Notes under the pieces: generated by a model | The model's input: only the letters and a program-made list of their open reading frames with translations | What the model was told of the DNA's origin: nothing | Databases searched by the model: none | Translations under genes and position numbers: made by a program | DNA from: Candidatus Multivoradales bacterium | GTDB lineage: Bacteria > Acidobacteriota > Thermoanaerobaculia > Multivoradales > J023 | Assembly (NCBI GenBank): GCA_965248925.1 | Contig: CBDFLE010000006.1 | Location: 2,240,001 to 2,304,000, forward strand | Direction of reading: 5' to 3' | DNA: 64,000 bases | Shown: positions 36,818-63,537 of the stretch, in pieces | How positions within the stretch are numbered: position 1 is the stretch's first letter | Layout of the letters: every line of letters starts with the position of its first letter

Positions 36818-36831
36818 TTTAACTCCCTTGA

Positions 36832-40981: not shown

Positions 40982-40996
40982 TGTTCTCCTCCCAAG

Positions 40997-41914: not shown

Positions 41915-41938
41915 GCCCGGATTCTACCGCGAGACGCC

Positions 41939-42723: not shown

Positions 42724-42743
42724 GGGAAGAGGGGTTAAAGGAT

Positions 42744-42857: not shown

Positions 42858-42961
42858 GACGGCAACTCAGGGTCGGAGGGTGGCGGTGGTGGATGAGGAA
42901 CTTGCAGCAGCGAGCATGAAAAGAGGGAGCCGCCCAGCCAGGCTGGAAGACTCCCGAGTAC

Positions 42962-43597
42962 TCACGCCAATCCCAGACGCTTGCGCGCAATCGCCGCGTA
43001 CTCCGGATCCAGCTCGATGCCGTAGAAATGTCGCCCCAGGCGCTGCGCCGCCTCACCAGTTGTCCCCGAACCCGCGAACGGATCAAGCACCATGTCGCCC
43101 GGCCTGGAAAATGCGCCGATCAGCGGCTCGATCGCACTGAGCGGTTTCTGCGTCGGATGCAGTCTGTTGCCCGTGTAACTCCACGGCAGTACATCATTGA
43201 GTAGCACCGCCGGTTGCTCTGGCTGACCTTTAGCCAGCAGATACGCCGACTCGTGCAAGCGCCGGACATACCGTTGAGACGACGCATACGATTTCGCCCA
43301 GACCAAGTGCCCGACCGGTCGCAGACCGGACTGCCGCCAAGCATGGAGAAACGTGTCCGCCTGCTGCCAACCATAAAACGAGATGCAGTAGCTGTTCGCC
43401 TTCAGCACCCGCGAGATTTCTTGAAAGGCCGGCTCCAGCCAATCGGCTTGTCGGTCGTTGCAAATCTTCCGCCCATCACGCGAGCGGTAGTCCACCAAGT
43501 ACGGCGGATCGGTGACCACCAGATCCACCTTGGCGTCCGGTACGCCTTTGAGAACTTCGATGCAGTCGCCGGTGATGATTTTGGAATGTGTCTTCAT
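42962..43597 (-). CDS. Orphan N6-adenine/N4-cytosine DNA methyltransferase (beta class, plasmid leading-region type)
   Basis: VTDPPY, HPTQKP and VLDPFAGSGTT motifs; no cognate endonuclease nearby. Confidence 0.92.
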   Translation of the reverse strand: MKTHSKIITGDCIEVLKGVPDAKVDLVVTDPPYLVDYRSRDGRKICNDRQADWLEPAFQEISRVLKANSYCISFYGWQQADTFLHAWRQSGLRPVGHLVWAKSYASSQRYVRRLHESAYLLAKGQPEQPAVLLNDVLPWSYTGNRLHPTQKPLSAIEPLIGAFSRPGDMVLDPFAGSGTTGEAAQRLGRHFYGIELDPEYAAIARKRLGLA

Positions 43598-43657
43598 AAG
43601 AAGTGAGAAAAAAAAGAGCAACGGAGCCAGCCTTCGACTGACCAGCTCCGCCGCCAA
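43598..43657 (-). repeat. Hairpin plus U-tract leader, copy 1
   Basis: AGAAGTGAGAAAAAAAAGAGCAACGGAGCCAG is 31/32 identical to the copy at 43850. Confidence 0.85.
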
Positions 43658-43659
43658 TG

Positions 43660-43848
43660 CTAGCCACAGCAGTCTGGATTGGCACGCTTGCCGTCCAGCT
43701 GATCAAGGTGACAGCTACATAGGAAACCAGCGCAATTCGGGCATTGATACTCAGTAGTGGAGTTCCCGCCATAGGAGCCAGCAGTCGTGATCCAGGCATC
43801 ATCTTGTTCCTTCTGGCAGTTCGGGCAGATGTAGGAGTTGGAGTTCAT
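43660..43848 (-). CDS. 62-aa Cys-rich zinc-ribbon microprotein
   Basis: MNSNSYICPNCQKEQDD...YQCPNCAGFLC; fits exactly between the two leader repeats. Confidence 0.7.
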   Translation of the reverse strand: MNSNSYICPNCQKEQDDAWITTAGSYGGNSTTEYQCPNCAGFLCSCHLDQLDGKRANPDCCG

Positions 43849-43906
43849 GAGAAGTGAGAAAAAAAAGAGCAGCGGAGCCAGTATCGAGTACCAACTCCGC
43901 CGCTGC
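43849..43906 (-). repeat. Hairpin plus U-tract leader, copy 2
   Basis: Near-identical to 43598-43657 except in the loop. Confidence 0.85.
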
Positions 43907-43914
43907 CGATGATG

Positions 43915-44118
43915 TTAGACCGCGTCAGCTGCCGACCGACCGGTCGAAGGTGCAGCCTTCGGCTCCATCAGGACGAACCGGCCATCAGGCGGCAGAACGT
44001 CCAAAACGACATTCAAGCCGTTGCCGTTCTTGGTCTTCCAAGCGGCGCCGATCTTCGTGAAGAAACCGTCCTTGACGTGGAAGGCTTCATAGACCGGAGT
44101 GTTCTTTGCAGAACTCAT
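43915..44118 (-). CDS. 67-aa mobile-element hypothetical protein
   Basis: FTKIGAAWKTKNGNGLNVVLDVLPPDGRFVL, a small beta-rich type I associate with plasmids/ICEs. Confidence 0.7.
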   Translation of the reverse strand: MSSAKNTPVYEAFHVKDGFFTKIGAAWKTKNGNGLNVVLDVLPPDGRFVLMEPKAAPSTGRSAADAV

Positions 44119-44161
44119 GAGAAAATGGGTAAAAGAATAAAAAACGCCGACCGAGTGAATC

Positions 44162-44320
44162 GATCGACACCTTGAGCACAGCAGACAGAGGCTCCGCGCC
44201 GCAAGGAGGAGTCGCAGGGAAGGCACAGGAATAGTCCGCCGCAGGCGGAATCTGCTGTGCCGACCGAGAAGCTCCTTGCGGCGTGGAGATGTCTGCTAAA
44301 ATGAGAGGTGTTGAGCGATC
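44162..44320. promoter_or_regulatory. Long imperfect hairpin A, putative ssDNA (Frpo-like) promoter
   Basis: Arms ACACC..GCAGAC..CTCCGCGCCGCAAGGAG / CTCCTTGCGGCGTGGAG..GTCTGC..GGTGT; tip CCGCC-GCA-GGCGG; TTGCGG (44276) and TGcTAAAAT (44297) in the right arm. Confidence 0.65.
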
Positions 44321-44332
44321 CCTCCATTCAGA

Positions 44333-44361
44333 TTGACCGATCCTTATCGAGAAAGTACAAT
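44333..44361 (+). promoter_or_regulatory. Sigma70-type promoter
   Basis: TTGACC-17 bp-TACAAT upstream of ORF 44388. Confidence 0.7.
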
Positions 44362-44387
44362 ATATCTACTTTCATTACTCCTGCCTC

Positions 44388-44630
44388 ATGGCTCATTCAG
44401 CCACCTTCGACACCCTCGCCTACGCCAAGAAAATGAAAGCTGCCGGCTTCACCGAGCAGCAAGCGGAAGGTCAAGCCGCAGCCCTCGCTGAAGTCATTGA
44501 CGAACGGATGGCAACCAAGCAAGATTTGCAGAATCTGGAAGAGCGGCTGATCCTCAGACTCACTATCCGTACCGGCAGCATGCTTGCTGCCACCATCGCG
44601 ATTCTTGCTACCCTGATCAAATTGCTTTAG
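44388..44630 (+). CDS. DUF1640/CCDC90-like small protein
   Basis: FDTLAYAKKMKAAGFTEQQAE...ATKQDL, with a C-terminal TM segment. Confidence 0.85.
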   Translation: MAHSATFDTLAYAKKMKAAGFTEQQAEGQAAALAEVIDERMATKQDLQNLEERLILRLTIRTGSMLAATIAILATLIKLL

Positions 44631-44701
44631 TTTCGCTCCCCAAAACCCACTTGCTGGATTCTGAGAGAAGTGTACAATGAGACTATTCTCACCTGAATCC
44701 C

Positions 44702-44845
44702 ATGGCCTTAACCGTCCAGAAACTCCGCAAGATCACCGGCAGCAAGACCCTTGAAGATTTCAAGCGCGACTACAAGAAGCGCACTGGACAAGAGCTGAAG
44801 AAGGTCCCGAAGCTCTCCCTGAAGACCAAGCTTGTTCTCAAGTAA
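44702..44845 (+). CDS. 47-aa Lys-rich microprotein
   Basis: MALTVQKLRKITGSKTLEDFKRDYKKRTGQELKKVPKLSLKTKLVLK, preceded by TTGCTG-16-TACAAT. Confidence 0.55.
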   Translation: MALTVQKLRKITGSKTLEDFKRDYKKRTGQELKKVPKLSLKTKLVLK

Positions 44846-44847
44846 CT

Positions 44848-45237
44848 ATCGAGATCCTCATCCGCCAGCGCCGGCCTTTCGTCCAGCTACCCGTCTTGAC
44901 CAAGACTGGGCGTTTCCGAAAAATGCGATTTCTCGTCGATACTGGCTTCACTGGAAGCTGTGTCTTCATTATTCGCAAAGGCGGAACCGTGCCCGATGTC
45001 GACTTGTCGGAGATCGAGGAGCTGCCAGCAGAAAGTTGGATCGAGGTCGCCAGCGGCGAGCAGGAACGGACCTTCTCAGCACTGACCGCCTTCAAGCTCG
45101 AAGCTGACACCCCATTGCCGGTGCTGTTGATGGAAGCCGAGGACTACGATGATCCGATTGTGGGCATGCAGTTCCTGGAAGAGCAGCAAAAGACCCTGCA
45201 CCTCGACTTTGGCGCGCGGTCGTTCTACTTGAATTGA
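44848..45237 (+). CDS. Clan AA (retropepsin-like) aspartyl protease
   Basis: FLVDTGFTG catalytic motif and PIVGMQFL. The frame is open upstream of TTG 44896, so the start is uncertain. Confidence 0.75.
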   Translation: MEILIRQRRPFVQLPVLTKTGRFRKMRFLVDTGFTGSCVFIIRKGGTVPDVDLSEIEELPAESWIEVASGEQERTFSALTAFKLEADTPLPVLLMEAEDYDDPIVGMQFLEEQQKTLHLDFGARSFYLN

Positions 45238-45506
45238 TCCGATCGAGATCAGCCACACCGCAGCGCTGAGCACAACACTGCATTGTGCGAAGTTGTAACG
45301 GAGTGGAAACTCCTCGCACAATGTCCGGTTGTGCCGGCGCGGTATTGACTGCGATCTGATTGGATTCTTGGGAATGGAGAAACCGACCAACCCCCACCCG
45401 AAGGGTCGGGATCACCAATACGACCAGAATGCGTCCCGCGCACTTCTCGTACTTTTCAATCGGAAGTTCGAACTGATCGCGAGATGTTCTTCGTGTCTGC
45501 TGCCCT

Positions 45507-46808
45507 CTATTGAGGGAAACGGACCTTCCTCGCAGTGGGGGCGATTTCGATCTGGTGAGGAAGATAGCTGCCTTCGACCCAGGCGATGACCATCCCATCT
45601 AACGTCCTGCGAAGCTTCTCCGTTGCCTTGAGGAACCCAGCAAGCGAGTGAATCTCAGTCTCACCCTGCCACTCCTGATCGCCGCCTCCATCGTGGCGAG
45701 CTAGAGGTCGCCAAACCAGCAGAGGAACGCGCAGCGCGCCCAAATAGTTGGCAGCTTGCTGGGGCGTCAGCGAGCTGGAGTCCTCGACGCGTCCCGATCG
45801 GATTAAGACCACGGCGCGGGCTCGCCCGGAACCAGCGGCTACGAAACCCGCCATCGCAACGGCATCCGCAATACGTTGCGATCCCTGCGGAAAATCCCGA
45901 TCAGGAAAAAAGCTATTCGCAACTAGTTCCAAGAGGGAGCGTGAGCCGTTGTCAGAAATGTCTTCTGACACCGGGAGAGCAGAGATCGCCGTCAGGTCTG
46001 GTGCTTCTTCCGCAAACACGACCCGTAGCTGATCGCCAGGACGCAAGCCGCGCAGATCTCGTCCCGAGAGGTCTCCCTTTCGCCGCACATGCATAAGCAA
46101 GTAGAGGTCCATCAAAGATTCAAGATTCCACTCTGACCCCTCGCGTACCACCACGATCTCGGCGTACCCGTGATCGACTGCCACCGTGCGTAACGGGCGC
46201 TTCTGAGCAGTGAGGACTTGCTGGAGATGCTCCAGCTTGACGCTACGGCGTCGACCCCAGGCTAGAGGGACGCTTGTGAGACCGCTCTGTGCGACATCTT
46301 GGAAACAGCAACCGAGCACCATCGTTGCTTGCGCTCGCAGCGTATCGGTGAAGACAACCTCTGCACGAAGAAGATTAGGCGCAGTCGGATCGAGCTTCGG
46401 AAGCGCAACGATCCCTTCCTGATCAACACTGAGGGCTAGGTCATCGAGCGAGACCGTAGCAGCTCGTTCCTTCCGGCCAGCCCGCTCTTCCCAGACGAGA
46501 CGAACAGTGTCCGGCGTTCCCTGCTCCCGAACGAAGCGAGCCGCGACTTCGGCGCCGGGGATATTAACGAGCTGACGCGCCTCCGCGACCGCGTCGCCAT
46601 TTGGCAATCGCCCGACCGCGCGGAGTTCGTGAGGCAGGAGAGCATTCCCCAGATCGCAGACGATCGCCCACGGCTCGTCATGGTCGACCCCGCAACTGGT
46701 ACCGTCGAGGAACAGCTCGACGCTCACCACCTCGGCACTCGTGGATGCCAGTCTCACTTCCTGGGGGCCAGTCATCAGGCCGAGGAAGAGCGTCAGGAAT
46801 TCGAGCAT
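45507..46808 (-). CDS. Hypothetical exported protein (Ig-like N-terminus, VWA-like C-terminus)
   Basis: VELFLDG...PWAIVCDLG...HELRAVG (Ig-like); IADAVAMAG...RARAVVLI (VWA-like). Confidence 0.7.
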   Translation of the reverse strand: MLEFLTLFLGLMTGPQEVRLASTSAEVVSVELFLDGTSCGVDHDEPWAIVCDLGNALLPHELRAVGRLPNGDAVAEARQLVNIPGAEVAARFVREQGTPDTVRLVWEERAGRKERAATVSLDDLALSVDQEGIVALPKLDPTAPNLLRAEVVFTDTLRAQATMVLGCCFQDVAQSGLTSVPLAWGRRRSVKLEHLQQVLTAQKRPLRTVAVDHGYAEIVVVREGSEWNLESLMDLYLLMHVRRKGDLSGRDLRGLRPGDQLRVVFAEEAPDLTAISALPVSEDISDNGSRSLLELVANSFFPDRDFPQGSQRIADAVAMAGFVAAGSGRARAVVLIRSGRVEDSSSLTPQQAANYLGALRVPLLVWRPLARHDGGGDQEWQGETEIHSLAGFLKATEKLRRTLDGMVIAWVEGSYLPHQIEIAPTARKVRFPQ

Positions 46809-46855: not shown

Positions 46856-47617
46856 CTAGTCGGCGCGATAATCGATCTGGAATGAGAGCAGAGTAAGAGA
46901 CCCCACGCTCGCAACGGCCTTTTCGTCATAGCGGAACTTCGCATAGGTGTTCAACGTCACATAGGCAAAGATCGGCGGACCAGAAGTCTCGCGAACCACC
47001 GGGCGTGCGACCGAGCCGTCCTCACGGACATCAACATAGAACGACACCGATCCACCAATTCCGGAAATTACCATTGCCGACATGAGGCGAGTTGCTTCCT
47101 TACCCTGCTGCTCCATGTTCCATCGAACCTGAGCCTGGGCTACAGCCGGAGTCGAGTTCACGACTTTTTTTGTGCCGAGATCAGAGGAATCGAGCACCTC
47201 AGTCAGTAAACGGGCATCTTGGCCCTCCAAGACTCGCGCTGCCAATCTGGGGAATGTGGAGAGTTTCAGGTCTCTGACTCCAGGCGCCAGGTTCTGAGCA
47301 ACATGCCACATCCAGAGTGCCCTGTCCTCTTCTCCAGTACCGGCTAGTGCGAGCGCTTTTAGTGCTGCGAGATGCCCTAGAGATCCGGCATCCATAATAC
47401 GTTCAGCGCTCGACTCAATAAGCGCGAGTTCAAGACGATGAATTGCGCGGGACGCCTTCTTCCAATTAGCTGCTTGGAGAAAAGTCTCTATCCTCTCCAT
47501 CTTTGCAGACGTCAACTGCGCGGCTGTCAATGCTGGTGCCCAAAAGACCAGGAGCGCTAAGCTGAATCTGACAAGTGGCGTTCTCACGGAACCAGCAGAA
47601 CCGACAATCCTACTCAT
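46856..47617 (-). CDS. Exported protein with a helical domain and divergent TonB C-terminal-like domain
   Basis: Signal peptide; C-terminal GSVSFYVDVREDGSVARPVV...FAYVTLNTYAKFRY. Confidence 0.65.
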   Translation of the reverse strand: MSRIVGSAGSVRTPLVRFSLALLVFWAPALTAAQLTSAKMERIETFLQAANWKKASRAIHRLELALIESSAERIMDAGSLGHLAALKALALAGTGEEDRALWMWHVAQNLAPGVRDLKLSTFPRLAARVLEGQDARLLTEVLDSSDLGTKKVVNSTPAVAQAQVRWNMEQQGKEATRLMSAMVISGIGGSVSFYVDVREDGSVARPVVRETSGPPIFAYVTLNTYAKFRYDEKAVASVGSLTLLSFQIDYRAD

Positions 47618-47713
47618 AGAATATAGAGCCCCAGGGAGAGATTAGTCTCGAAAATAATGCGCGGTGCGACGCCAGGACGACGGACTGGATTGATCGCTAC
47701 GAGCTAACGATCG

Positions 47714-47929
47714 CTAGGAGCAAGTTGTCTCGGTGAATTGCACTGCGGTACCGTTTGAAAGAAAGTAGAGATATGTGATTTGGTGGCAGACGATCTGCCC
47801 TCCCCCCGAGAAGACGATATCGTCAACGATGATGTAGTCTAGGCACTCGCCGGATGGCGCACATTGCCCGAAGCTGATTGCGGGGAGGAACACGAGCATG
47901 AGAGCTGTGAGAATTACTGCTAGTTTCAT
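47714..47929 (-). CDS. Secreted four-cysteine peptide 1
   Basis: GGAGG RBS; MKLAVILTALMLVFLPAISFG-QCAPSGEC...VC...TTCS. Confidence 0.72.
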   Translation of the reverse strand: MKLAVILTALMLVFLPAISFGQCAPSGECLDYIIVDDIVFSGGGQIVCHQITYLYFLSNGTAVQFTETTCS

Positions 47930-48290
47930 AGGAATAGCCTCCAAAGTAGAAATACGTAAACAGAGTACCCAAAGTACCTCTTGTCAGCACCGCACTAGAC
48001 ACTCTATCATTATAGACAAGGGGCTGGCGATGACCTTGTTCTCTTCTCACTAGGCATCTGTCGATGCACCAGCATCACTCTCCCAGAGGAATTTGCGGCA
48101 CCGCGCCGCTAGTTTCCGGTCATGGTTTTGGACCAGAGACCTCGCCGCGCAAGTGAGTTCTTCTGACGCTGGACACCTGGAGTTTTTCATCAAGAGAAAA
48201 AGAAGAGACGGCCGGCCCTATCCGCATCGAATGGCGACCATCCGGAGCCCAGATTCCCTGTTTCCAAGCGATGTCGTCTCTCGCCAGTAG

Positions 48291-48701
48291 CTAAGATCCT
48301 AATTCGCGAATCAAGCGCTGCCGTATTCGCCGCATGCGCGATCTGTCACCTCGAAAGCGCGCAATCCGCGAGCCGAGCACCGTGATCAGCCCGGCGTATT
48401 CGATCCCGCGATCTCGCTCCGGATCGAGCAGGTCATGCGCACGTTTCCAGGTCCGACCGTCCGCCGAGAGCAGCAGATCCACCTCTCGGTTAAGTTGCAA
48501 CGCTGAGAACGCCCAATGGAAGGACCCGATCCTGATCTGCGCATCGCGCGCTAGTTCTTGCAGGTCGGCCAGCAACGGTCCCGTCAGCGGATCGCGGCCG
48601 ATCAGATACCACGCCAGCCGGCCGAGTTCTGGACTCGCCTCTTCCGCTAATAGCAGCAAGTTGGCGACATCATCGTGCTTGGGCGTGAGCGCCGGGGTCA
48701 C
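48291..48701 (-). CDS. Hypothetical protein
   Basis: 136-aa ORF with a GTGA overlap with the upstream gene. Confidence 0.6.
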   Translation of the reverse strand: MTPALTPKHDDVANLLLLAEEASPELGRLAWYLIGRDPLTGPLLADLQELARDAQIRIGSFHWAFSALQLNREVDLLLSADGRTWKRAHDLLDPERDRGIEYAGLITVLGSRIARFRGDRSRMRRIRQRLIRELGS

Positions 48702-49440: not shown

Positions 49441-51123
49441 CTACTCGTGAAGGCGCGGAATCTGGATCAACAAGCGCAGCGTCGCTTGGAGCTGCTGGAG
49501 CAAGTCGCGGCTCAGCCGTTCTTCGGCTATGGCAGTTCTGAGTAGGCCCAGCGCTACCAGCACTTCACGATGAATCCGGAGCCCTTCAAGAGTGGGAATC
49601 AGCGACATGGCGATCTCAGCTGTGGAGCGGTTACGTTTTTGCTCCAAGAAGAGAACGGCGAGATCGAGCGAGATGACGGCGGCATAGCCTGTTTCGCCAC
49701 TGTCAGCGAAGCCTTGCTGCGCCGTTTGGAACGCTTGTTCAGCGCTCGCAAGGTCTGACTTGCTCTGCGCGATCAGACCCCGCAGCCAGCAGAGTTGGTG
49801 CTGCCCGATTTGATAGCGATGGCGCGCGCAAAGTTCCGCGGCACGAGGAAGGTGCTGCTGTGCTTCTTCGTAGCGCTCGGCCAGGGTCAAAGAGGTGGCC
49901 AGGTTGACGGTCAGAGCGAGTTCGAGATGGGAGTCTGTACTCGCTGTGTTCGCCAGGCACTCTTTCGCGCGCTGGAGATCAGGGACGGCGTCCGCTGGTC
50001 GGCCATCGAGATCGGCGATCAACGCCCGGCGCAGCAGCACGCGGCAAACCTGCTGGGGAGGACTGTCGCTTCGGTCCAATTCGCCCATGGCCTGGTTGAC
50101 CAACTCTGCTGCCTCTACCAAGCGGCGCTGGTACACCCGCAAGCCGGCTTTGAGATCGTAGAGATCGGCGGCGACGGCAGGGTTCGGCGGCTGCGAAGCT
50201 GCCAGCCAGCAATGCTCTGATTCGGCGAACGCCAGCTCGGCGCCGGCGTAGTCCAGCGCCAGTCGCCGGGCGTTGCCGATCCACGCCCACGCCTTGGCAG
50301 ACAAGTCCGGCAGCAAAGCACCGAGCGCCGAAGCGCTGCCTTGCAAGCTCTCCAGTGCCAGCTCGGCCAACTGGATACCGCGCTGGCGGTCACCTCGCCC
50401 CTCCTGACGGCTCTGCTTCAGCAGGAAGTCGAAGAGCGCCGCTGAGCGGAACGAGATCCGCGAGCGCACGAATTCAACTTGCTCTACGGAGGAAAGATCA
50501 CGAATCGTTTCCCAGACCACTACAGCGAAGGCTTTCTCAAACTGGACGCCGTCAACCAACAGCTTGTGCGCGTTTGCATCTGCTGACGTGGGATAGAGCA
50601 GACGCCAGCGGCGGCGCAACACGGCAGCCTCGGCTGGATCGAGTTCGCCAACCAATGCTCGCCGCCAGTAGTCAGCAGAAAACATCTCCTGCTGCGCACT
50701 TCCGGCTCTCGCAGTGGCTTGCCCATCAGCCTTGCAAAAGTCAGCCGGGCGCATGCCGCTCCAGCGCGTGAAGGCACGGGAGAACACCGATGCGGAGGAG
50801 TAGCCCACCAAGTCGCCGATGGCTGAGATACGCAGCTCCGAGGTTCGCATCAGCTCGACCGCCGTCTGCAAGCGCGCATCTTCGATATAGACACTGGGCG
50901 GTATGCCGACGTGCTGCCGGAAGAGGAGCGGAAACGAATTGTCGCGGATACGGCCGGCAATCTTGAGCCGACTGACATTGAAGCCAGGTTCAAAGAGGTG
51001 CTCTTGCAGGTAGCGGAGCACCGGCACGAGCTGCGCCGGTGCCCTCTCGCGGTCGCTGCGGATGCGCGCGAGCGCAGAGGCGGCGGCGGTGTCCAGCAGA
51101 GCTTGGGAATGGTCGAGCTGCAT
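49441..51123 (-). CDS. Regulator with N-terminal AraC-type HTH and C-terminal TPR region
   Basis: FRQHVGIPPSVYI...RL..A.ELM...ISAIGDLVGYSSASVFSRAFTRWSGMRP, then TPR-like helices (AWAWIGNARR, NLATSL...RYEEA); AAGGGGAG RBS. Confidence 0.88.
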   Translation of the reverse strand: MQLDHSQALLDTAAASALARIRSDRERAPAQLVPVLRYLQEHLFEPGFNVSRLKIAGRIRDNSFPLLFRQHVGIPPSVYIEDARLQTAVELMRTSELRISAIGDLVGYSSASVFSRAFTRWSGMRPADFCKADGQATARAGSAQQEMFSADYWRRALVGELDPAEAAVLRRRWRLLYPTSADANAHKLLVDGVQFEKAFAVVVWETIRDLSSVEQVEFVRSRISFRSAALFDFLLKQSRQEGRGDRQRGIQLAELALESLQGSASALGALLPDLSAKAWAWIGNARRLALDYAGAELAFAESEHCWLAASQPPNPAVAADLYDLKAGLRVYQRRLVEAAELVNQAMGELDRSDSPPQQVCRVLLRRALIADLDGRPADAVPDLQRAKECLANTASTDSHLELALTVNLATSLTLAERYEEAQQHLPRAAELCARHRYQIGQHQLCWLRGLIAQSKSDLASAEQAFQTAQQGFADSGETGYAAVISLDLAVLFLEQKRNRSTAEIAMSLIPTLEGLRIHREVLVALGLLRTAIAEERLSRDLLQQLQATLRLLIQIPRLHE

Positions 51124-51982: not shown

Positions 51983-52018
51983 TTTGCCTTGACAGGCAAA
52001 GCCCCACAGGAGTAGTCT
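51983..52018 (+). promoter_or_regulatory. Sigma70 promoter with an operator-like dyad centred on the -35 box
   Basis: TTTGCC-TTGACA-GGCAAA, then TAGTCT at 52013-52018 (18-bp spacing). Confidence 0.6.
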
Positions 52019-52022
52019 TCAT

Positions 52023-52331
52023 ATGTCCTCTAATAAGCACCACATGAGCGAATCCCCCAGAGCAACATCATCTTCGGCCGAAGGTAATGTTACGCCGAAA
52101 ATACGGGAAGCGAGCAGCACAGTAGAGGATTGTCAGCTCTCTCTAGGGAGGCAGCTGGAAATCGTCCTAGAGGATCGTCTGGGACATTCACCGGATGAGA
52201 TGCCTTTATACGCCAAGCCCCGGCGAATGGCGCCGGGAACAGCGCCTCCACATCGCGGCAAGCAAAAACATGGCTTTGCCCGAGGCTTCGATAGTCTAGC
52301 TGGAAAATCTCTAGGTACATTCGATTTTTAG
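52023..52331 (+). CDS. 102-aa hypothetical protein, likely first gene of the HExxH-SIR2 operon
   Basis: AGGAG 10 nt upstream of the ATG, and a promoter immediately upstream. Confidence 0.5.
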   Translation: MSSNKHHMSESPRATSSSAEGNVTPKIREASSTVEDCQLSLGRQLEIVLEDRLGHSPDEMPLYAKPRRMAPGTAPPHRGKQKHGFARGFDSLAGKSLGTFDF

Positions 52332-52405
52332 GGTGGGTCACTCCATAGGGTGTGTTGCGGCTTCTTCCCAGCAGCACTCTTACCGAGTACCGACAGGGGA
52401 GAATT

Positions 52406-55400
52406 ATGCTCAAGGGCTTCCAGTCAACAAATATTTCACTGCATGCCGGGTTTCTCAATGTTATCTTCTTTGAGACGAATCCATCCAAGATCCTAGAGAT
52501 CGCCAAAGCTGCTAAGTCGCGCGTAGAAGACCTACGATCTCACCGACCGCACGACTATCAGTTCTCTTGGCTGCCAGAAGCTGAACTTCCGATTTGCGAA
52601 GAAGAGGACGAAGGCGCTGCCTTCTACTTCCCTCGCGTCTTCATCACCTCGGGAACGTTTGACGTTGCCGCGATTTTCCTTTCTCCCACAATGGAGATGG
52701 CACCTTGGATGCAAGTGGACGCACTACGAGTGTCCGGTCAGGACATCAATGTCGCACTGCTACCCAAGAAGAGCCCCCTTCTCGGTAGTGGGGTTCGAGA
52801 CTTCAATCGCGACTTCTGGGAATCCTACAGGCAAGAGCCTAGTAGGAACTTGGAGCCAGCCAGGGCATTCACCGGAATAATCAAGCTCAAAATCAATCCT
52901 GCGACCTGGCCGACGCTTCACCCCAACGCTGACCAGCAAACTGGACAGCTCACTCATCAGTTGGCCGACCTCTGGCAAGCGGTGGACCGCTGGCGGAAGA
53001 CAACAGCAGTTGCAGGAACGGAACACCCCGAAGTAGCACTCGCCATCTCCTTCGGCTGGAACGAGTTTCTTATTGTGGCGCATGCCGACTCTCCCGGCAA
53101 GCTGTTTCGCCTGTCACTTGCTATTCGCCAATGTTCTACATCGGCACCATGTCTCGCCGATGAGCCCAAGAACCTGGTACATCTCTTGTCGACGACAATA
53201 ACCGCAGTAGGGCACGATTACCGAATTCGCGAACATTGCATCGAGGAGTTGGACTCTCGGAGCAAGGCACGCCACTCAATCTCAGCTAAAGAAATCCTAA
53301 ATCTTGCTCTCGCTCTTCCGCGAAACCACCAAGAGAAAAAGACCTTCGAAGAGACAGGGGACATCCCTGGCACCTTCTATCAAATCGGTTGCCACACATA
53401 CCCAGGACACGAGAAGAGTCTCTTCTCGCTACTTCGGAAGCTTGAGGATACGCTGAAGAAGCAAAATATGCTGACTTCGGAAGATTCAAGCTGCGTGGAT
53501 ATCGGCAAAAGGGATATTTGGACTCCTAGGATCGTAATCGGAGAAAACTATTTTTCTCCGCTAGAAGCGACCTACTTGGTGGAGTTGCTTCATGTCTGGA
53601 TTCGCAATGGAGGCGCCGGACCCCTGGGAAAACGGACACAACGCGGGAAGTCCAACGGCGAAGCTCCAATCCGTGCCGCGTTTGACTTCTACACTCGCCT
53701 AGCGTGCCCAAGGCGCGTCAATGAACAAAACCTGAATCTGCGGCCCGTTCCACTCAACCATGTGACCAGAATGCCGCAAGATTATCTTACCCCGCCCCTA
53801 GTAACAATGGAATTCGCCCAGACTCGCGAAGATAACGGATTCGTGGCCCGCCTCAAGTTCTCCATGCGGATCCTACAGATCCCCTACTATCTCTCTGAGC
53901 AGATTCTCAACTTGGTGAATACATTTTTCTGGGCAAACGATCGTGACGTCATCTGGGACGAGAGCATTGAATTGATCCCCGTGGTAGTTGGCCTTGCTGA
54001 CAACGTGAATGCGCTACGAAACTGGTGGAATCTCGGCAAACCGACAGTACCACTCTATCCCTGGGAGTCTGTCTCTGAAGAACAGCGCAACGAGCTGATT
54101 GGCGATGAAGTTGGACGCAGACTGGCCGGAAACATCGACCCGAATATCCCAGAACTGCTGCATGCCTTCCGGGCATATTTTTATTCAAGACACCTGTCAA
54201 GCTACCTAACCGACGAAATGCCGGATATGAACATCCGCTTTCGCGGCTCGGTGCACCAACTACTAAATATATCAAATCTGATCCTCGACGCGATGTCTGA
54301 CCGAATCTTCGGTCCGAGAGCCTCAATGGCAATCATCGGCGACAGCGCGTCGCCCGAAATTGAGACTCCGTGCGATATCATCGTTGTAAAGCTCAATACT
54401 AACACCTTTACTATGCCCATAATGCTTGAATCTCTCGCTCACGAAGTTGGCCACGAACTAATCCTGGAGTTGATACGCGATTCCGTTGACTCAGGGTGGA
54501 GGCGTCACCGCTGGCTAAAAGGCAAGTTCAGTCGAACTCGCCAGAAGAACTTCAAGCGACTTGTCTCTGTGTTTACGCAGTTGCACCATGATGTGTTCCA
54601 AACCATGCTCGTGCCACCGACTAGCGACAATGACTGCGCCAGAGTCTTCATTGAGAGCTCTAGCGACTTTGTCGAATACCAACTCCTAGCCTTTGCTTCA
54701 GTGGAAGACTGGGCTCCGAGTTTTTTCTTAAGAATGGTACTTGCCGGGAGCCCCAGCAGTCTTGGTGCAAGACCTGAAGACATCGGTTCAATCGTGCCTC
54801 ACCTAGACGACAAGTTGATCTTGTCGGCCATACTAAGATCTGTCCATGTACTACTCGCGCACAGAATGAGCACAAAGGACTGGAGTAGCCTGGAAGAATT
54901 TAGAGATAGGATGATTGTCGCAGACCTGGCAGAGTTTAGAGATCTTCTGATAGAGAGATGTGTTCTCGGTCCAGGAGTGTCGCCTGCTCACTTGCTTCGC
55001 GCGGAATCTTGGCAGCATTTTGTTCGCAGCGAAGTCTTTGGCTCTTCACCTCTTTTCTTCTCGGAGGAGGGCTTTGAGCTTGCCTGCAAGTTCTACAAGG
55101 CTTTGGCTGGTCACGCGCGACCGCACCCGAACTCAATCCGAAAAGACACACCAGAGCGCTTTCTGAGCAGTATCCAAGATTCTTTCCGAGACCTACGTGG
55201 GTCATTCCCACAAGGGCAGGAAGAGGGTGATGGAGTATATGGACTCTTGCTCCCGAGCTTACATATACGTCACTGGCTTTCCGCCGAAGAACTCCGTGAC
55301 GTGCGCTCAGGAAAGATTTCCGCAACAGGGTGGGGTACTAGAAAAAGACCTTGGGTAGTAGCCCCTCAGCCCACGAAGACCCTCTTAGAATTCTTACGGG

Positions 55401-55600
55401 ATGGGCGTCCCTTTTCTCCAAGAACTTCGATCTTTCAGCGGGGTCAGATAATCCCGCGCTCAATCTCGGTTCAAGGCAGGTGGACCGACATAAACAGCCG
55501 TTTCCTGTTGCGATTGCTAGATATGGTGCCGTCCTGGCGTGTTTCTATTCTCAGAAAGCTCGAGGTTGTGCTGTCGCGTTCACGGAGTCGAAGTGTTTAG
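52406..55600 (+). CDS. Large hypothetical protein with a zincin-like HExxH motif
   Basis: Uninterrupted ~1064-aa ORF with GGGGAG RBS; LAHEVGHE and later IESSSD. Confidence 0.85.
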   Translation: MLKGFQSTNISLHAGFLNVIFFETNPSKILEIAKAAKSRVEDLRSHRPHDYQFSWLPEAELPICEEEDEGAAFYFPRVFITSGTFDVAAIFLSPTMEMAPWMQVDALRVSGQDINVALLPKKSPLLGSGVRDFNRDFWESYRQEPSRNLEPARAFTGIIKLKINPATWPTLHPNADQQTGQLTHQLADLWQAVDRWRKTTAVAGTEHPEVALAISFGWNEFLIVAHADSPGKLFRLSLAIRQCSTSAPCLADEPKNLVHLLSTTITAVGHDYRIREHCIEELDSRSKARHSISAKEILNLALALPRNHQEKKTFEETGDIPGTFYQIGCHTYPGHEKSLFSLLRKLEDTLKKQNMLTSEDSSCVDIGKRDIWTPRIVIGENYFSPLEATYLVELLHVWIRNGGAGPLGKRTQRGKSNGEAPIRAAFDFYTRLACPRRVNEQNLNLRPVPLNHVTRMPQDYLTPPLVTMEFAQTREDNGFVARLKFSMRILQIPYYLSEQILNLVNTFFWANDRDVIWDESIELIPVVVGLADNVNALRNWWNLGKPTVPLYPWESVSEEQRNELIGDEVGRRLAGNIDPNIPELLHAFRAYFYSRHLSSYLTDEMPDMNIRFRGSVHQLLNISNLILDAMSDRIFGPRASMAIIGDSASPEIETPCDIIVVKLNTNTFTMPIMLESLAHEVGHELILELIRDSVDSGWRRHRWLKGKFSRTRQKNFKRLVSVFTQLHHDVFQTMLVPPTSDNDCARVFIESSSDFVEYQLLAFASVEDWAPSFFLRMVLAGSPSSLGARPEDIGSIVPHLDDKLILSAILRSVHVLLAHRMSTKDWSSLEEFRDRMIVADLAEFRDLLIERCVLGPGVSPAHLLRAESWQHFVRSEVFGSSPLFFSEEGFELACKFYKALAGHARPHPNSIRKDTPERFLSSIQDSFRDLRGSFPQGQEEGDGVYGLLLPSLHIRHWLSAEELRDVRSGKISATGWGTRKRPWVVAPQPTKTLLEFLRDGRPFSPRTSIFQRGQIIPRSISVQGRWTDINSRFLLRLLDMVPSWRVSILRKLEVVLSRSRSRSV

Positions 55601-56615
55601 GGCTCAGGAAGCTGCCTTCCAGCTCCTTGAAGAATCGTTCCATGACGGGTCAGTCTGCCTGGTGTTGGGCGCGGGAGCAAGTGTTGACATCGGTCTTCCT
55701 CAATGGAAAGGTCTCGTGGAAAAGGTCGCGGGACAGTTAGGCGCCGAAACGAAGAACCTCGATTCGGCTGGCTATGCTAGAGTTCTTGGACAACTAGCAC
55801 GCTCGTCTGAGTTTTGGCGGGCCCTCAGTACCGCTCTTTACAGCGGACAGTGCTCAAGAGACTGGGTTAGCCGATCCTTGTCGGGAAGCTATGCGCTGAA
55901 GCGTTTGGCAATATTGGCGATACTAGGCGCGATTGGCCACCCTGATCGATCCTTCCACGCAATGACCTACAACCTGGACTGTCTCCTTGAGGAACAGATA
56001 GCCCATCTTGGCCACAGGGCGGTAGCATCGACTGCAAACGAGGAAGAGGTTTGGGAACCGACAGACTCAACAGAGGCGCTAGTTACTTGCTGCCCCAGGC
56101 ATTCTAGGGGTGAAGTGGCTACAGTCAGGATCTTTCACCCTCATGGACTGTTGTTAAGGGAGGGATCGAGGGCAATCGATCCAATACTGACTGCTGAGCA
56201 ATACGAGAGCCTCGCCAATGTTCCGTTGGGACAAATTAATCTTACGCAGATGCGACTGTTTATCCAGAGAACCTGCATCTTTTATGGTTTTTCTATGACA
56301 GACCCAAACGTCAACAGACTACAGCGGCTCGTTCACAACTTGGTGCGGTCTGGAACGGAACAGGAATCGGCCGGCAACGATTGCTTCTCTCACATTGCAC
56401 TGATCACTGACGAATCCGGCTCTGTTGTAGCAAAACGGGCCGCTCGCGGAGACGCCAATACGATTGCTGGCTTGGAACAAATCGACCTGTATGAGATGGG
56501 AGTTCTGAGACTTGGGCATATGGGCTACCGACAGCACCGGCTCTTTCTGGCGGAGCTGTTGCGGCGTGTAGGCAAAGGATTTCAGTGGCCGGGCAAGCTG
56601 AGTCCCTACTCCTAG
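55593..56615 (+). CDS. SIR2-like (SIR2_2) domain protein
   Basis: LVLGAGASVDIGLPQW, TYNLDCLLE, FHPHG, ILT.EQY and CIFYGFSMTDPN motifs; GTG start overlaps the upstream stop (GTGTTTAG). Confidence 0.88.
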   Translation: MFRAQEAAFQLLEESFHDGSVCLVLGAGASVDIGLPQWKGLVEKVAGQLGAETKNLDSAGYARVLGQLARSSEFWRALSTALYSGQCSRDWVSRSLSGSYALKRLAILAILGAIGHPDRSFHAMTYNLDCLLEEQIAHLGHRAVASTANEEEVWEPTDSTEALVTCCPRHSRGEVATVRIFHPHGLLLREGSRAIDPILTAEQYESLANVPLGQINLTQMRLFIQRTCIFYGFSMTDPNVNRLQRLVHNLVRSGTEQESAGNDCFSHIALITDESGSVVAKRAARGDANTIAGLEQIDLYEMGVLRLGHMGYRQHRLFLAELLRRVGKGFQWPGKLSPYS

Positions 56616-56658: not shown

Positions 56659-57294
56659 TTGTATCCTGAGCTACACTTGCCCCCTTTTCCGATTCTTCAC
56701 ATCCCCTCCTACTCCACCCCCTTCCGCTGGCTCATCGGCCTCTTCCGCTCGCGCATCCACGGCGACGCCCGTTGGATGCGCCGCAGCGAACGCCGCCAGT
56801 TTCTCGCACCTCGGAATCGGGGCATCACGCTCGCCTCCGGTGCCCCTGGCATCTCCGGAGCCGGAGCCATGCGACTCAGCCAGCGCGACTCCTTCACCAA
56901 CCTGGCGCTCGTGGCGCCCACAGGCTCGGGAAAGACCACGCGCTATGTCATCCCAAACGTCCTCCAAGTCGACGGTTCCGTCGTCGTCACCGACCCGGCC
57001 GGCGAGATTTTCGCCTGCACCTCGGGACATCTCGCCAGTCGTGGATTCCAGATCCAGACGCTACAACCAGCAGACGTGAAGCACAGCGCGCAGTTCAACC
57101 CCTTGGCGTTCTGTAAAACTCCGCAGCAGCTGCGGCAGCTGGCTACTTTGTTGGGGAAGAGCATGCAGGGTCAGCGTTCCGATCCCTTCTGGTCAACGGC
57201 GGCGATCAACCTCCTGGCGTTCAGCCTGGTGGCCATCGCCAATGTCGAAGATGAGCGCTTCCGTAATTTGGGAAATCTGCGCTGGCTCCTGAAC
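56659..57294 (+). pseudogene. VirD4/TraG coupling-protein fragment truncated by IS21
   Basis: HGDARW, VAPTGSGKT..YVIPN, VVTDPAGEI, FNPL and DPFW motifs; ends at the IS terminus and has no Walker B. Confidence 0.85.
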
Positions 57295-57648
57295 TGCCTA
57301 TTCCGACGAAACTGACCAGCCATTCCGATCGAAACCGACCACTTGTCGGAGCGAAGCGACGCTGGCGCTCTCCTCAGTTGTAAGTGTCCACTTTCGCTGT
57401 AGCTGGAGCCCTCCTTCCGGCTCTTCTTCTTGGTTGATTGTATTCAAATAACCCGTCGTCGGGGCTGTGCGTAGCTGTGGGAAACGCGGGTGGGTGGCCG
57501 GGGGGCGTTTTCCAAGCGGCTGTGGGAATCGCAGAGCGATTTCCTCAGCCGCGGCAGCTTCCACAGTCCATCTTGGGTCGGGTCCGGATCGGGCCGCAGG
57601 CCCGCTGATGGGTCAGGATCGGCGATCGCTTCAGCATGCTCTTGGATC

Positions 57649-58413
57649 TCACCTTGCCTCTCGCTGGGCGGCCTTGCGAATACCGCCGGCTCTCTTCGCC
57701 CGCATGGAGTCACCGTCCACCGCGAGCTTGTAGGCGCCGTGGACAATGCGATCGAGGATGGCGTCGGCCAAGGTCGGATCGCCGATGACCTCGTACCAGC
57801 TCTCAACCGGTAGCTGGGAGGTCACCAGCGTGGAGCGGTTGCCGTAGCGGTCCTCAAGAATCTCGAGCAGGTCGCGCCGCTCGCTGGCCCCGATCGGCGC
57901 CAGCCCCCAGTCGTCGAGGATGAGCAGGTCTGTGCGAGCATAGCTCTTGAGCAGCTTCTCGTAGCTACCATCACCCCGCGCGATGGCGAGCTGGCGAAAC
58001 AGCCTCGGCACCCGCAGGTACAAAGCGGTGTAACCCTCCCGACATGCCTTGTGCGCGAAGGCGCAGGCGAGAAAGGTCTTGCCCACCCCGGCCTTGCCGG
58101 TGATCAGCACGTTGAGATGCTCGGCGATCCACTGGCACGAGGCCAGGCGCAGGATCTGGCCTTTGTCCAGGCCCCTCTTGGCTCGCCAGTCGATGTCTTC
58201 GATGGCCGCCTGCTCGCGCAGCTTGGCTTTTCGCAACCGCGCTATCAAGCGGCGGCTGGATCGCTCGGTCGCTTCGCGCTCGACCAGCAGCCCGAGGCGC
58301 TCTTCGAAGGAGAGCTCTGAGACATCGACCATCGACAGCTGCTCCTCAAAGGCTTTGGCCATACCGTGGAGCTTGAGCGCGGCGAGTTGATCGAGCGTCG
58401 CGTGCCTCAGCAT
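57649..58413 (-). CDS. istB: IS21 helper ATPase
   Basis: GKAGVGKT, LILDDWG, VTSQLP and ADAILDRIVH motifs. Confidence 0.96.
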   Translation of the reverse strand: MLRHATLDQLAALKLHGMAKAFEEQLSMVDVSELSFEERLGLLVEREATERSSRRLIARLRKAKLREQAAIEDIDWRAKRGLDKGQILRLASCQWIAEHLNVLITGKAGVGKTFLACAFAHKACREGYTALYLRVPRLFRQLAIARGDGSYEKLLKSYARTDLLILDDWGLAPIGASERRDLLEILEDRYGNRSTLVTSQLPVESWYEVIGDPTLADAILDRIVHGAYKLAVDGDSMRAKRAGGIRKAAQREAR

Positions 58414-59981
58414 GGCGGCGTCTCCTCGCGGCGCGCGGCACTGTAGTAGCTGGCGCCGCGGACGTTGCGGTGCTCGATCGGCGCCGTCACTTCGGTGGGC
58501 TCGGGCGCTGCTTGCTGGTCCAGGCCGCTCTTCAGGATCGACTTCACGCTCTTGTAGGACAGGCCGTGAATGGCGAGCGCGCGGCGGCACGCAGCCTCCA
58601 AACGATTGGCACCATAGGTCTTGCCCAGGCGCATCAGCCCCAGACACGAGCGAAAGCCGTGCTGAGGATGGGAGCGGTTAAGCATGATGGTCTCCACCAG
58701 TTCGGCCGTCGCCTGGCCTGTTTTCGCCGCCCAGCTGATCAGCCGTGTCGGTGTCCACTCCAGGTACGCCTGGTGCGCTTTGGGCATGTGCTCGCTCTGG
58801 GTCGTGTGCCGACCCCGACACCGATTGCGACGATGAGCAGCCACACGCTTGCCGCGATCGAGCACCTCCACCAGTTGCGCCGTCGCCCGCAGATCGAGCT
58901 GCTTCTTGATCAGCTGGTACGGCACACTGTAATAGTGGCCCTCGAACTCGACGTGGTAGTCCGGGGCAACGCGTACCTTCTTCCATTCGGCAAGCTCGTA
59001 GGGCTGGAGCGGCAAAGCACCCAGAGCAGGACGATCGACCTGCTCGAACAGCGCTCGGCGCGAGACGCCCAACACCTTCAGCGGACGGTCGTTAAGCTCG
59101 ACCAGAAGCTTCGCGATGCTCTCGTTGAGCTCTCGCAGGCTGAAGAACTGCTGGTTACGCAGCCGGGCCAGAATCCAGCGCTCCACTTGCAATACACCGT
59201 TTTCGACCTTCGCCTTGTCTTGGGGCTTCCTCACCCGCGCCGGCACCACCGCCACGCCGTAGTGCTCGGCCAACTCCGCGTAGGTGCGATTGATCTCCGG
59301 CTCGTAGCGGCACGGGCTGGTCACGCCGCTCTTCAGATTGTCCGGCACCACCAGCTCGCTCACCCCGCCCAGAGCCGCGAAGGTCCGCACATGAGAGCCG
59401 ATCCAGTCCTCCAGGCCCTGGCTCCACGTTGATTCGGCATAGGTGTAGTTGCTCGCCCCCAGCACCGCCACGAAGATCTGCGCTTCGCGCGCTTTGCCAG
59501 TCGCCGGGTCGATCACCCTCACGGTCTGTCCGGCATAGTCGACGAACAGCTTCTCGCCCGCCCGGTAGGCTTGGCGCAGGCACACATCCAGGCGCCCTTC
59601 CCAGATCCGGTACAGCTGACAGAAGCGGCTGAGACCGTAGCCGTCAGGATGGTCCTCCCGGTACTCCTGCCACAGCAGCGACAGGGTTACGCACTTCTTC
59701 TTCAGCTCGCCATGCACCTTGGTCCAGTCGGGCAAGGCTCGCTGACCACCCCTCCGAAGCGGCTGCGGCCGAGGGTACAGGCGTTGCTCCAGCTCAGCGT
59801 CGCTCAAAGCTGCTACTTGCTCCCAGCTCAGGCCTTCAACCTTGGCTCGCAGCAGGTAGTTGCACACCGTCACGTGGCCCAGCCGAACCGACCGTCCGAT
59901 CTGGCGGTGCGACAGGCCATGCTGCCATTTCAGTCTCAGTACCTCGCGTATCTTGCGCATCGATGTCCTCACTCTCGGCAT
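58407..59981 (-). CDS. istA: IS21 transposase
   Basis: MRKIREVLRL, FVDYAG, VPDNLKSGV, KAKVE and YYSVP motifs. Confidence 0.96.
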   Translation of the reverse strand: MPRVRTSMRKIREVLRLKWQHGLSHRQIGRSVRLGHVTVCNYLLRAKVEGLSWEQVAALSDAELEQRLYPRPQPLRRGGQRALPDWTKVHGELKKKCVTLSLLWQEYREDHPDGYGLSRFCQLYRIWEGRLDVCLRQAYRAGEKLFVDYAGQTVRVIDPATGKAREAQIFVAVLGASNYTYAESTWSQGLEDWIGSHVRTFAALGGVSELVVPDNLKSGVTSPCRYEPEINRTYAELAEHYGVAVVPARVRKPQDKAKVENGVLQVERWILARLRNQQFFSLRELNESIAKLLVELNDRPLKVLGVSRRALFEQVDRPALGALPLQPYELAEWKKVRVAPDYHVEFEGHYYSVPYQLIKKQLDLRATAQLVEVLDRGKRVAAHRRNRCRGRHTTQSEHMPKAHQAYLEWTPTRLISWAAKTGQATAELVETIMLNRSHPQHGFRSCLGLMRLGKTYGANRLEAACRRALAIHGLSYKSVKSILKSGLDQQAAPEPTEVTAPIEHRNVRGASYYSAARREETPPC

Positions 59982-60733
59982 CCAATCCTCCTTTCAAGGA
60001 GGCTGGAATACCCCAATTGTGAGGAGCGCGCTACCGTCGAACTCCGCCGTGGCCAGGATTCCGATCCAATCTGACCACCCATTCCGATCGACCCGGAAAA
60101 GTGGTCACTTTCGATCGGAATCGATGGTCAGATTCCGTTGGAATCACTGGTCACTTTCAATCGGAATCGGTGGTCGGTTTCCGTCGGTGCAGGCAGGAGT
60201 AGCAGGGCATCTTCGAAGGACGAGAAAGGCCACCGACAATCTCCCATGCGTGCGCACGGGAGAGGTAGATGATCTTCGCGAAGAGCGCAGAGCCATCGAT
60301 GCGGTTGGCCTCGCCCTCACGGGGATGATCGCTGGCTGTTGATGAAGAGAGTGCTTCCAGAATCCAAGAGGTGAAATGCTCCCGTCATGATGAAGAAGAT
60401 GTGGATGAGAGCCGAGGAGTCGGCGGACAGCTCAGGCAGACGCGAAGCCCGCCAATGGCGGGGTTGCGGTGTCGTCATGTCTGGCGAAGTTGTCGCACTC
60501 AGCGGTGGTTGCCGAGCAGCCACAAAGTGGCTGCCTATTACAGAACGGTCCGATTTCGCGTTGAGCTGCACAGCAGCCGCTCGTGAGCAAGTGAGCGATT
60601 GGCCGCACGCGTTCGCAGGGGAGCAAGATTGCAACTGCACCCCCCGTCCCGATGCAGTGCATCGGGACGGGTATCTCGCGATGGGCTGCCGCCCCTTCGA
60701 ACCCCAAGAAAAGAACCGGCAGCAGGAGGTTTG

Positions 60734-63267: not shown

Positions 63268-63537
63268 ATGATCATCAAGTCGATGGCGCGTAAGAGCGCC
63301 TCGTTCCGGCAACTCCTCAGCTACATCAGTCGTGTGGAAAAGAGAAGCCGCGCGTTGCTCCACAACCTGCGCTGTGAGAAGGACGATCTGGCGGCGATCA
63401 GCCGGGAGTTCAACGCCAACGCCCAGCTCATGCCACCACGCAAGAACGGAAACACCCGCTATCACGAAGTGCTCAGCTTCGCAGCCGCAGATCGGGAGGA
63501 AGCCACACTGGCTGTGCTTGAGGATGTTAGCGGCTGA
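63268..63537 (+). pseudogene. Truncated MOBP-type relaxase
   Basis: MIIKSMARK...LLSYI (motif I Tyr) and YHEVLSF (motif II); stops before the HUH motif. Confidence 0.78.

Follow-up and report, generated by a model that had tools for sequence, protein, structure and literature searches.

SIR2 NADases are recurring effectors of bacterial immunity, with relatives in animal innate immunity. In DSR1 and DSR2, a SIR2 NADase module is fused at the N terminus of a single polypeptide of ~1000+ amino acids (aa) to a large, mostly helical sensing part of ~700-1000 residues, and the system uses neither an ATPase nor a signalling nucleotide. Thoeris consists of the TIR protein ThsB and of ThsA, which carries SIR2 plus a SLOG (or macro) domain, and in Kongming (KomABC) the SIR2 protein KomC works with KomA and KomB; both ThsA and KomC are SIR2 effectors switched on by small molecules. 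SIR2-HerA and Lamassu have two or three genes, and their separate SIR2 protein stands under the control of a large partner, the hexameric P-loop ATPase HerA or the SMC-like ATPase LmuB, and SPARSA combines SIR2-APAZ with a short prokaryotic Argonaute (MID-PIWI). Here we describe a gene pair at positions 52,406 to 56,615 of a 64,000-nucleotide (nt) stretch of contig CBDFLE010000006.1 from Candidatus Multivoradales bacterium (the window), in which a large protein of an unnamed family (gene 1) is followed by a stand-alone SIR2_2 protein (gene 2). By analogy with DSR2, ThsA, SIR2-HerA and SPARSA, as far as the published accounts consulted describe them, we put at about 0.5 the probability that the pair is an undescribed two-gene, horizontally mobile abortive-infection cassette with a SIR2 effector and gene 1 as its sensor or regulator.

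Judged by such likenesses, the pair would work most like a split DSR or a SIR2-HerA-style pair with a large partner controlling a separate SIR2. Unlike in DSR1 and DSR2, SIR2 is here a protein of its own, encoded downstream of the large gene; the score with the NCBIfam Dsr1 model is 13 bits, where the cut-off is 1400, gene 1 has a triple ferredoxin-like N terminus and an HExxH motif, and no DSR2 chain stands among the fold matches listed. At one distantly related locus, SIR2 comes first and the large protein second, an arrangement that mimics a split DSR. ThsA (in PADLOC) and KomC (in the PDB) are the best sequence matches of gene 2 and have the catalytic motif set in common with it, at ~50 residues per match, whereas no TIR or SLOG match was found in gene 1, gene 2 or the upstream open reading frame (ORF) P0003, and no recognisable signal-making partner adjoins gene 2. 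Gene 1 differs from HerA in having no ATPase family match or Walker A motif and from LmuB in having no SMC/ABC signature, the LmuA model matching gene 2 weakly (6.6e-5), and the pair differs from SPARSA in giving no Argonaute or APAZ match.

A preliminary description of this DNA, made from its letters alone, had recognised no TIR, HerA, Argonaute or STAND partner and no P-loop in gene 1. Searches of Pfam, PADLOC and NCBIfam and a Walker A scan agree: the motif is absent from gene 1 and from 21 of 23 family members, and the two existing matches do not align, so that none is conserved. That description had also recognised no named system with this combination. The SIR2 plus large-partner combination is likewise not named in PADLOC-DB 2.0 (2023), the set of defence models tested, which may predate Kongming. 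In the parts of the literature searched (including PMC9503650 and 10.1101/2025.09.30.679545), no description was found of a large HExxH or ferredoxin-barrel protein with a SIR2 gene as its partner; supplementary tables of large screens (e.g., 10.1101/2025.01.08.631966), which lay outside that search, might list the family. New here are the gene 1 partner family and the way its domains are combined; SIR2 with a novel sensor is an established theme.

Results

An intact, overlapping gene pair of low GC content

Both genes are intact ORFs (Table 1). Gene 1 has an ATG start at 52406, with GGGGAG 8 nt 5' of it, and a TAG stop at 55598-55600. The likeliest start of gene 2 is a GTG at 55593, preceded at 6 nt by a Shine-Dalgarno sequence, GGAG; this start agrees in an alignment with the N termini of the relatives P0007 and P0008. 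Given the GTG, the two genes overlap by 8 nt, GTGTTTAG, as first reported. Chance ORFs can be ruled out because gene 1 has real relatives (30 representatives, E = 0 to 1e-30). The GC content over 52000-56500 is 0.50-0.54, compared with 0.60-0.63 upstream and 0.61-0.66 downstream, a deficit put at 6-10 points for the window, which bears out the earlier remark that the pair is less GC-rich than its host, and the pair lies 5-10 points below its flanks at all three loci examined (the window, L001 and G093, the latter two introduced below). No transmembrane segments are predicted in either protein (maximum 19-residue hydropathy 1.36 and 1.45). A promoter and terminator scan gave counts not above those in shuffled sequence, and a sequencing-run lookup returned the DNA in four runs from one study, with no RNA run listed.

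Table 1. Coordinates of the gene pair, its motifs, the surrounding features and two copies at other loci
Feature	Coordinates	Strand	Remarks
Gene 1 (P0001)	52406..55600	+	1064 aa, intact ORF; family rare and unnamed
Gene 1 residues 12-273	52439..53224	+	two ferredoxin-like domains forming a dimeric alpha+beta barrel of chlorite dismutase / HemQ / ABM-monooxygenase / DyP type (model)
Gene 1 residues 319-447	53360..53746	+	third ferredoxin-like (ACT/RAM-like) domain (model); carries PGHE and G367..D370
PGHE, residues 333-336	53402-53413		P333, G334 each 23/23; H335, E336 each 22/23
HEVGH, H679-H683	54440..54454	+	H679 20/23, E680 21/23, H683 17/23
E750-x3-D754-x2-E757	54653..54676	+	E750 19/23, D754 20/23, E757 20/23
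Q1011-R1012-G1013, C-terminal motif	55436..55444	+	Q1011 20/23, R1012 23/23, G1013 22/23
Gene 2 (P0002)	55593..56615	+	340 aa, intact ORF; stand-alone SIR2_2 protein
Upstream ORF P0003	52023..52331	+	102 aa; no family match; cassette membership unsupported
VirD4/TraG-type type IV coupling protein, N-terminal fragment	56776-57366	+	PF02534, 7.1e-24; 56776..57307 lie ahead of the IS21 element
IS21-family element, complete-looking	57308-60135	-	interrupts coupling-protein gene after residue ~173
IS21 terminal inverted repeats	57308-57347 / 60096-60135		40 nt, 85% complementary
istB	57649-58647	-	PF01695, 3.5e-76
istA	58407-59981	-	rve and Mu-transposase C domains
Relaxase fragment	63268-63531		88 residues; 51% similar to N terminus of L001 relaxase; orientation opposite to L001
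AraC-type helix-turn-helix (HTH) and TPR regulator	49441-51123	-	560 aa; divergent from cassette
Type II N6/N4 DNA methyltransferase	42962-43657
Replic_Relax gene	40997-41914
TraD/TrwB-like (second coupling-protein-like) ATPase	38250-40172
tRNA-Arg	36741-36817		followed by 434-aa ORF without family match
Decayed cassette copy, L009 (G555:C5)	9431-12517		gene 1 homologue minus first ~157 residues (first ferredoxin-like domain)
Reversed arrangement, L010 (G489:C219)	6379-10061		379-aa SIR2_2-like gene overlaps start of 861-aa distant gene 1 relative with HETGH

Gene 2 is a stand-alone SIR2_2 protein

Gene 2 matches SIR2_2 in Pfam (PF13289) with an E value of 1.5e-9 and 38.5 bits (gathering cut-off 24.5) over residues 124-245. 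Its motifs, GAGAS (26-30), N127-x-D129, H182-P-H184-G185 and G232-x-S-x-x-D237, make up the full set that had been read from the sequence, and in the form GAGxS, N127-x-D129, H182-x-H184-G185 and G232-x-S-x-x-D237 they are invariant in 8 of 8 aligned relatives at 22-37% identity. We take these residues to be the putative counterparts of the glycine-rich NAD loop and the catalytic Asn and His familiar from work on ThsA, DSR2 and KomC; the PDB titles among the matches include 'DSR2 H171A' and 'KomC(H146N)'. The PADLOC matches are all to defence sirtuins, namely ThsA (3.3e-10 and 1.8e-7), Dsr1, LmuA, the SIR2 of SIR2-HerA type and Aga_SIR2 (E = 0.0047), and they are partial, covering residues 15-77 for Dsr1, 8-79 for LmuA and 16-53 for Aga_SIR2. 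The nearest solved chains by PDB sequence are KomC (6e-5, 49 residues), ThsA and DSR2. Neither SLOG, APAZ nor any other sensor or ligand-binding domain was found by Pfam, PADLOC or NCBIfam, and there is little in the protein beyond the SIR2 domain. By analogy with its defence relatives, gene 2 would be expected to hydrolyse NAD+.

The two genes at other loci

Six loci were inspected for the gene pair: the window; L001, a contig of an Acidobacteriota metagenome-assembled genome; G093, a complete genome of the same phylum but a different class; G555, from the same order as the genome of the window (G000); and G489 and G310, which carry members of a distant subfamily. A SIR2 gene lies directly downstream of the gene 1 homologue at all four close-family loci with flanks, the copy in G555 being a truncated remnant, and adjoins the gene 1 relative at one of the two distant-subfamily loci (G489). 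Co-occurrence elsewhere, which the preliminary description had left to be checked, is thus found.

In L001, a gene 1 homologue with 41% identity is followed by a SIR2 gene with 35% identity and then by an intact coupling protein, a 362-aa ORF (RadC-like in a by-eye reading) and a relaxase; L001 and the window have backbone DNA in common about 9 kb upstream of the pair. G093 encodes a 998-aa gene 1 homologue and then a SIR2_2 gene (Pfam, 2.2e-10), flanked by genes for a glycosyltransferase, an amine oxidase, a MopE-motif protein and a hydantoinase/oxoprolinase, with no transfer genes in 8 flanking ORFs. The gene 1 homologue of G555 precedes a 106-aa SIR2 stump, a 264-aa ORF (LolA-like, again by eye) and tgt. 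The reversed gene order in G489 suggests that large proteins associated with SIR2 form a wider superfamily (alignment of 11 members). In G310, the distant relative is broken up between the ends of two contigs; nearby genes encode, among others, ankyrin/TonB_C, kinase-AAA_16-TPR and BON-domain proteins, and 5 of 10 ORFs scanned there gave no Pfam match. Swapping of effectors among homologues, a possibility raised earlier, was not seen: no alternative effector stands beside gene 1 relatives at the six loci, and G310, the only relative without a SIR2 neighbour, has no recognisable effector.

The short ORF upstream of the pair, P0003, had been put forward as a possible third component, and we rejected it in that role as not conserved: tblastn gave no match at L001, G093, G555 or G489, and the sole signal is one 21-residue patch (9/21 identities) with an ORF upstream of the L001 pair. 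P0003 has no match in Pfam, PADLOC, NCBIfam or PHROGs.

Gene 1 belongs to a rare, unnamed family

At E <= 1, gene 1 matches nothing in Pfam, PADLOC or NCBIfam, and at E <= 0.01 nothing in PHROGs, where gene 2 also gave no match; Pfam returned nothing at E <= 10 for four domain-sized pieces of the protein or for pieces around HExxH from three homologues. A convincing Pfam domain is absent from all 23 family members, the sole match at E <= 0.01 being CysG_dimeriser in one member (E = 0.0041), and a profile of these 23 found 0 matches among PDB sequences at E <= 10. A word-index search with gene 1 found two relatives among 5.8 billion clusters, and with the 23-member profile four proteins only; a HMMER profile search of 1.84 billion (1.84e9) representatives returned 45 relatives at E <= 1e-3, of which 34 also pass 1e-10 and 30 pass 1e-30. 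Ten family clusters that were looked up have one or two members each, with 'hypothetical protein' as the only name given. tblastn of gene 1 against plasmid and phage collections gave no match, and two metagenome scans found no locus. Among 401 genomes sampled from the phylum, 2 carry the family; a class sample, also of 401, has 3 (including the weak G489 match), and the class of G093 has 1 in 119, with G000 counted in both 401-genome samples. The gene 1 family is rare and patchy in distribution.

Site conservation was counted over the 23 members. The best-kept sites are not those of HExxH; the most conserved motifs are PGHE and G367..D370 (G367 23/23, D370 22/23), both in the third ferredoxin-like domain, and P1042 near the C terminus is conserved in all 23. 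The LAHEVGH motif and distal acidic motif noticed earlier are both present in gene 1, as H679, E680 and H683 and as E750, D754 and E757. The full HExxH plus E..D..E set is found in 16 of the 23 members. Six members carry another residue (Y, N, N, K, A or T) in place of H683, three members (the G093 copy among them) have HExx[Y/N], and the four most divergent members lack both HExxH and the acidic motif. As HExxH is incomplete in 7 of 23 members, proteolysis is not a general mechanism of the family; from this conservation pattern, a catalytic metal site is plausible in most members and would not be universally required.

Predicted structure of gene 1 and the metallopeptidase question

An AlphaFold model of gene 1 built with three sequences only had a pLDDT (predicted local distance difference test) of 33 and was unusable; it was replaced by a model from a 43-sequence alignment, with a pLDDT of 88.5 and a predicted template modelling score (pTM) of 0.92. 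This model shows three ferredoxin-like domains in the N-terminal part. The G-x-x-(D/E) turns TSGTFDV, SFGWNEF and DIGKRDI, from which tandem ferredoxin- or AsnC-like domains had been proposed, are hairpin turns between paired strands in these three domains, and the model thereby upholds the proposal. PGHE lies in the third domain, where its first strand passes into its first helix. ACT-type domains bind ligands at the strand-to-helix junction, and by this analogy the PGHE pocket is a candidate ligand site.

We compared the model with 48,161 PDB representatives using VIA-align. Its two tandem ferredoxin-like domains form a barrel as in the chlorite dismutase (Cld)/HemQ/DyP/ABM superfamily; identity to barrel-superfamily structures is 3-13%, with no family-level sequence match, and a common fold does not imply a common function. 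Foldseek gave no row at E <= 0.001 against the PDB and nothing below E 0.09 against viral structures (BFVD).

The remainder of the model is helical, save for three short strands (640-663) before the helix that carries HEVGH (671-694). E750, D754 and E757 lie on a later helix (743-760), and this acidic motif is a possible source of a third metal ligand. As modelled, the arrangement of the HEVGH and acidic helices is what a minimal gluzincin would look like. No zincin stands among the Foldseek and VIA matches listed (for VIA the best 50, lowest Z 6.0), which are filled by the N-terminal domain. In hhalign, gene 1 aligned with a Peptidase_M48 profile, built from three paralogues of the same genome as the window, over the 15-column motif helix only, at a probability of 3.3%, and PF10463 (Peptidase_U49) has no match in G000 or any control genome. 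In language-model feature space, residues 600-800 have only peptidase-labelled neighbours (M13-like 0.84; M48, U49 and M78 0.78), and with all values below 0.9 they serve as leads only. The earlier reading of gene 1 as a metallopeptidase stands at the level of motifs only.

The pair as cargo of a decayed mobile element

The pair is cargo of a decayed integrative, conjugative-type element, here called ICE-like, and has an ICE-like setting in two genomes. The broken transfer genes that had been reported around it are borne out by a coupling protein cut down to residues 1-173 (55% identity to the L001 protein) and by a relaxase fragment. An IS21-family insertion sequence interrupts the coupling-protein gene, no continuation of which was found past it, and an intact copy of this gene stands after the pair in L001. 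The relaxase fragment lies in the opposite orientation to that of L001, which indicates rearrangement in the transfer region. Extra internal copies of the IS21 repeats occur near 60057-60187.

The stretch from 36741 to 43657, with tRNA-Arg, the second coupling-protein-like ATPase, the Replic_Relax gene and the methyltransferase, is probably the integration end of the element carrying the pair; no integrase was identified. Two low-GC stretches (0.52-0.54) at 43500-45500 and 47000-48500 have few long ORFs and no family matches, and may be other cargo of the element. An ORF at 45507-46808 (433 aa) has no Pfam or PADLOC match. The AraC-HTH/TPR gene upstream of the pair is not conserved at the other loci; at its place in L001 we read, by eye, ORFs resembling an extracytoplasmic function-type sigma factor and a Ser/Thr kinase.

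Discussion

If the pair is an abortive-infection cassette, gene 2 would be its effector, which, once switched on, would halt the infected cell by hydrolysing NAD+. Gene 1 would probably keep the SIR2 protein silent in a complex, with the 8-nt translational coupling providing both proteins in matched amounts. Infection could be sensed by the N-terminal triple ferredoxin-like module, which resembles a ligand- or protein-binding pocket, and the helical HExxH half may relay the signal to activate or release the SIR2 protein, either by changing conformation or by a proteolytic cut in those members whose HExxH...E site is complete. A complex prediction with gene 1 residues 436-1064 and gene 2, made without controls, scored 0.00 and speaks neither for nor against binding. 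A bolder version would make the pair a new SIR2 immune class, in which the barrel and the ACT-like domain with its PGHE/G..D pocket bind a small molecule that appears at infection and thereby license a built-in zincin to release or cleave-activate the NADase, without a nucleotide-signal synthase. Candidates for this molecule would be a metabolite made by the phage or arising from damage, or a ligand resembling a tetrapyrrole; we regard the bolder version as a long shot.

Several observations favour an abortive-infection cassette. The SIR2_2 motifs are invariant in all aligned relatives, and the database neighbours of gene 2 are all defence sirtuins. The pair is kept in the window, L001, G093 and G555, with unrelated neighbours in the latter two, and a distant relative in G489 adjoins SIR2 in the reversed order. 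The gene overlap carries a Shine-Dalgarno sequence, the incidence of the family is patchy, GC is low at three loci, the pair resides in an ICE-like element in two genomes, and one copy is decayed. Weighing on the other side, the matches of gene 2 to defence models are weak (best 37 bits in PADLOC) and partial, and gene 1 matches no PADLOC model at all. The zincin reading of gene 1 is a motif-level one, and only 17 of 23 members retain the second His of HExxH. The inspection covers only six loci, of which the window and L001 are one element family rather than independent contexts, and SIR2 is missing from the 7.5 kb and 13 kb available around the G310 relative. A defence-island setting, also raised in the preliminary description, did not emerge: in G093 and G555 the pair is not flanked by defence genes, and the only defence-type neighbour found in the window is the type II methyltransferase 9 kb away.

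The mobile-element residence of the pair could also be read as that of an addiction or stabilisation module resembling a toxin-antitoxin system, in which a SIR2 toxin is held by the large protein and freed on loss of the conjugative element, serving element maintenance or the exclusion of competing plasmids rather than phage defence. In both the window and L001, the gene that comes straight after the pair encodes the coupling protein of a related element, the two genes of the pair are translationally coupled, and an unregulated SIR2 NADase would be toxic, as is established for defence sirtuins in the accounts consulted. We nevertheless consider this explanation unlikely, given that the pair is also found away from transfer genes in G093 and G555 and that a strongly conserved, multi-domain partner of 1064 aa is far bigger than an antitoxin requires; such a role and one in defence are not mutually exclusive. 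The HExxH motif points in another direction, to gene 1 as a second effector that, like Lit (Peptidase_U49) and other phage-exclusion zincins, would act as a zinc protease cutting a host or phage protein on a trigger, with SIR2 as a parallel effector or a sensor-controlled partner. Gene 1 resembles these as an HExxH protein in a conflict context, with U49, M48 and M78 among its feature neighbours, the HExxH helix after three strands, the acidic motif on a later helix and both motifs complete in most members. It differs from Lit in having no sequence or profile match, a length four to five times greater and extra domains; moreover, no Pfam peptidase matched its domain-sized pieces, the M48 alignment covered the motif helix alone, no zincin was among the best 50 fold matches, and six members, the G093 copy included, have replaced the second His. 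A second effector of this kind is therefore also improbable in our judgement.

The N-terminal fold, being that of haem- and hydrophobic-ligand-binding enzymes, together with the metabolic genes next to the G093 copy, would fit a pair outside biological conflict, made up of an NAD-dependent protein-modifying enzyme (a deacylase or ADP-ribosyltransferase) and a partner sensing, for example, a tetrapyrrole or hydrophobic metabolite in its chlorite-dismutase-like barrel. Against such a pair stand the very patchy distribution, the low GC content, the residence in a mobile element, the decayed copy and the placement of the gene 2 sirtuin in SIR2_2 rather than in a classical deacetylase family, and we find it quite improbable. 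An abortive-infection cassette with gene 1 as sensor or regulator is the explanation we favour.

With each new SIR2 partner, a further route by which cells sense infection comes to light. The gene 1 family is unnamed and lacks both a Pfam model and a relative of solved structure, and in the parts of the texts searched its domain combination is not reported for a defence sensor. If the pair serves the maintenance of its element, it would be a case of conjugative elements using SIR2 toxins. If it is a defence system, it would be a candidate from Acidobacteriota, a soil phylum, and would represent a new sensor architecture and maybe a new type of trigger, in the form of a small-molecule pocket or a protease switch.

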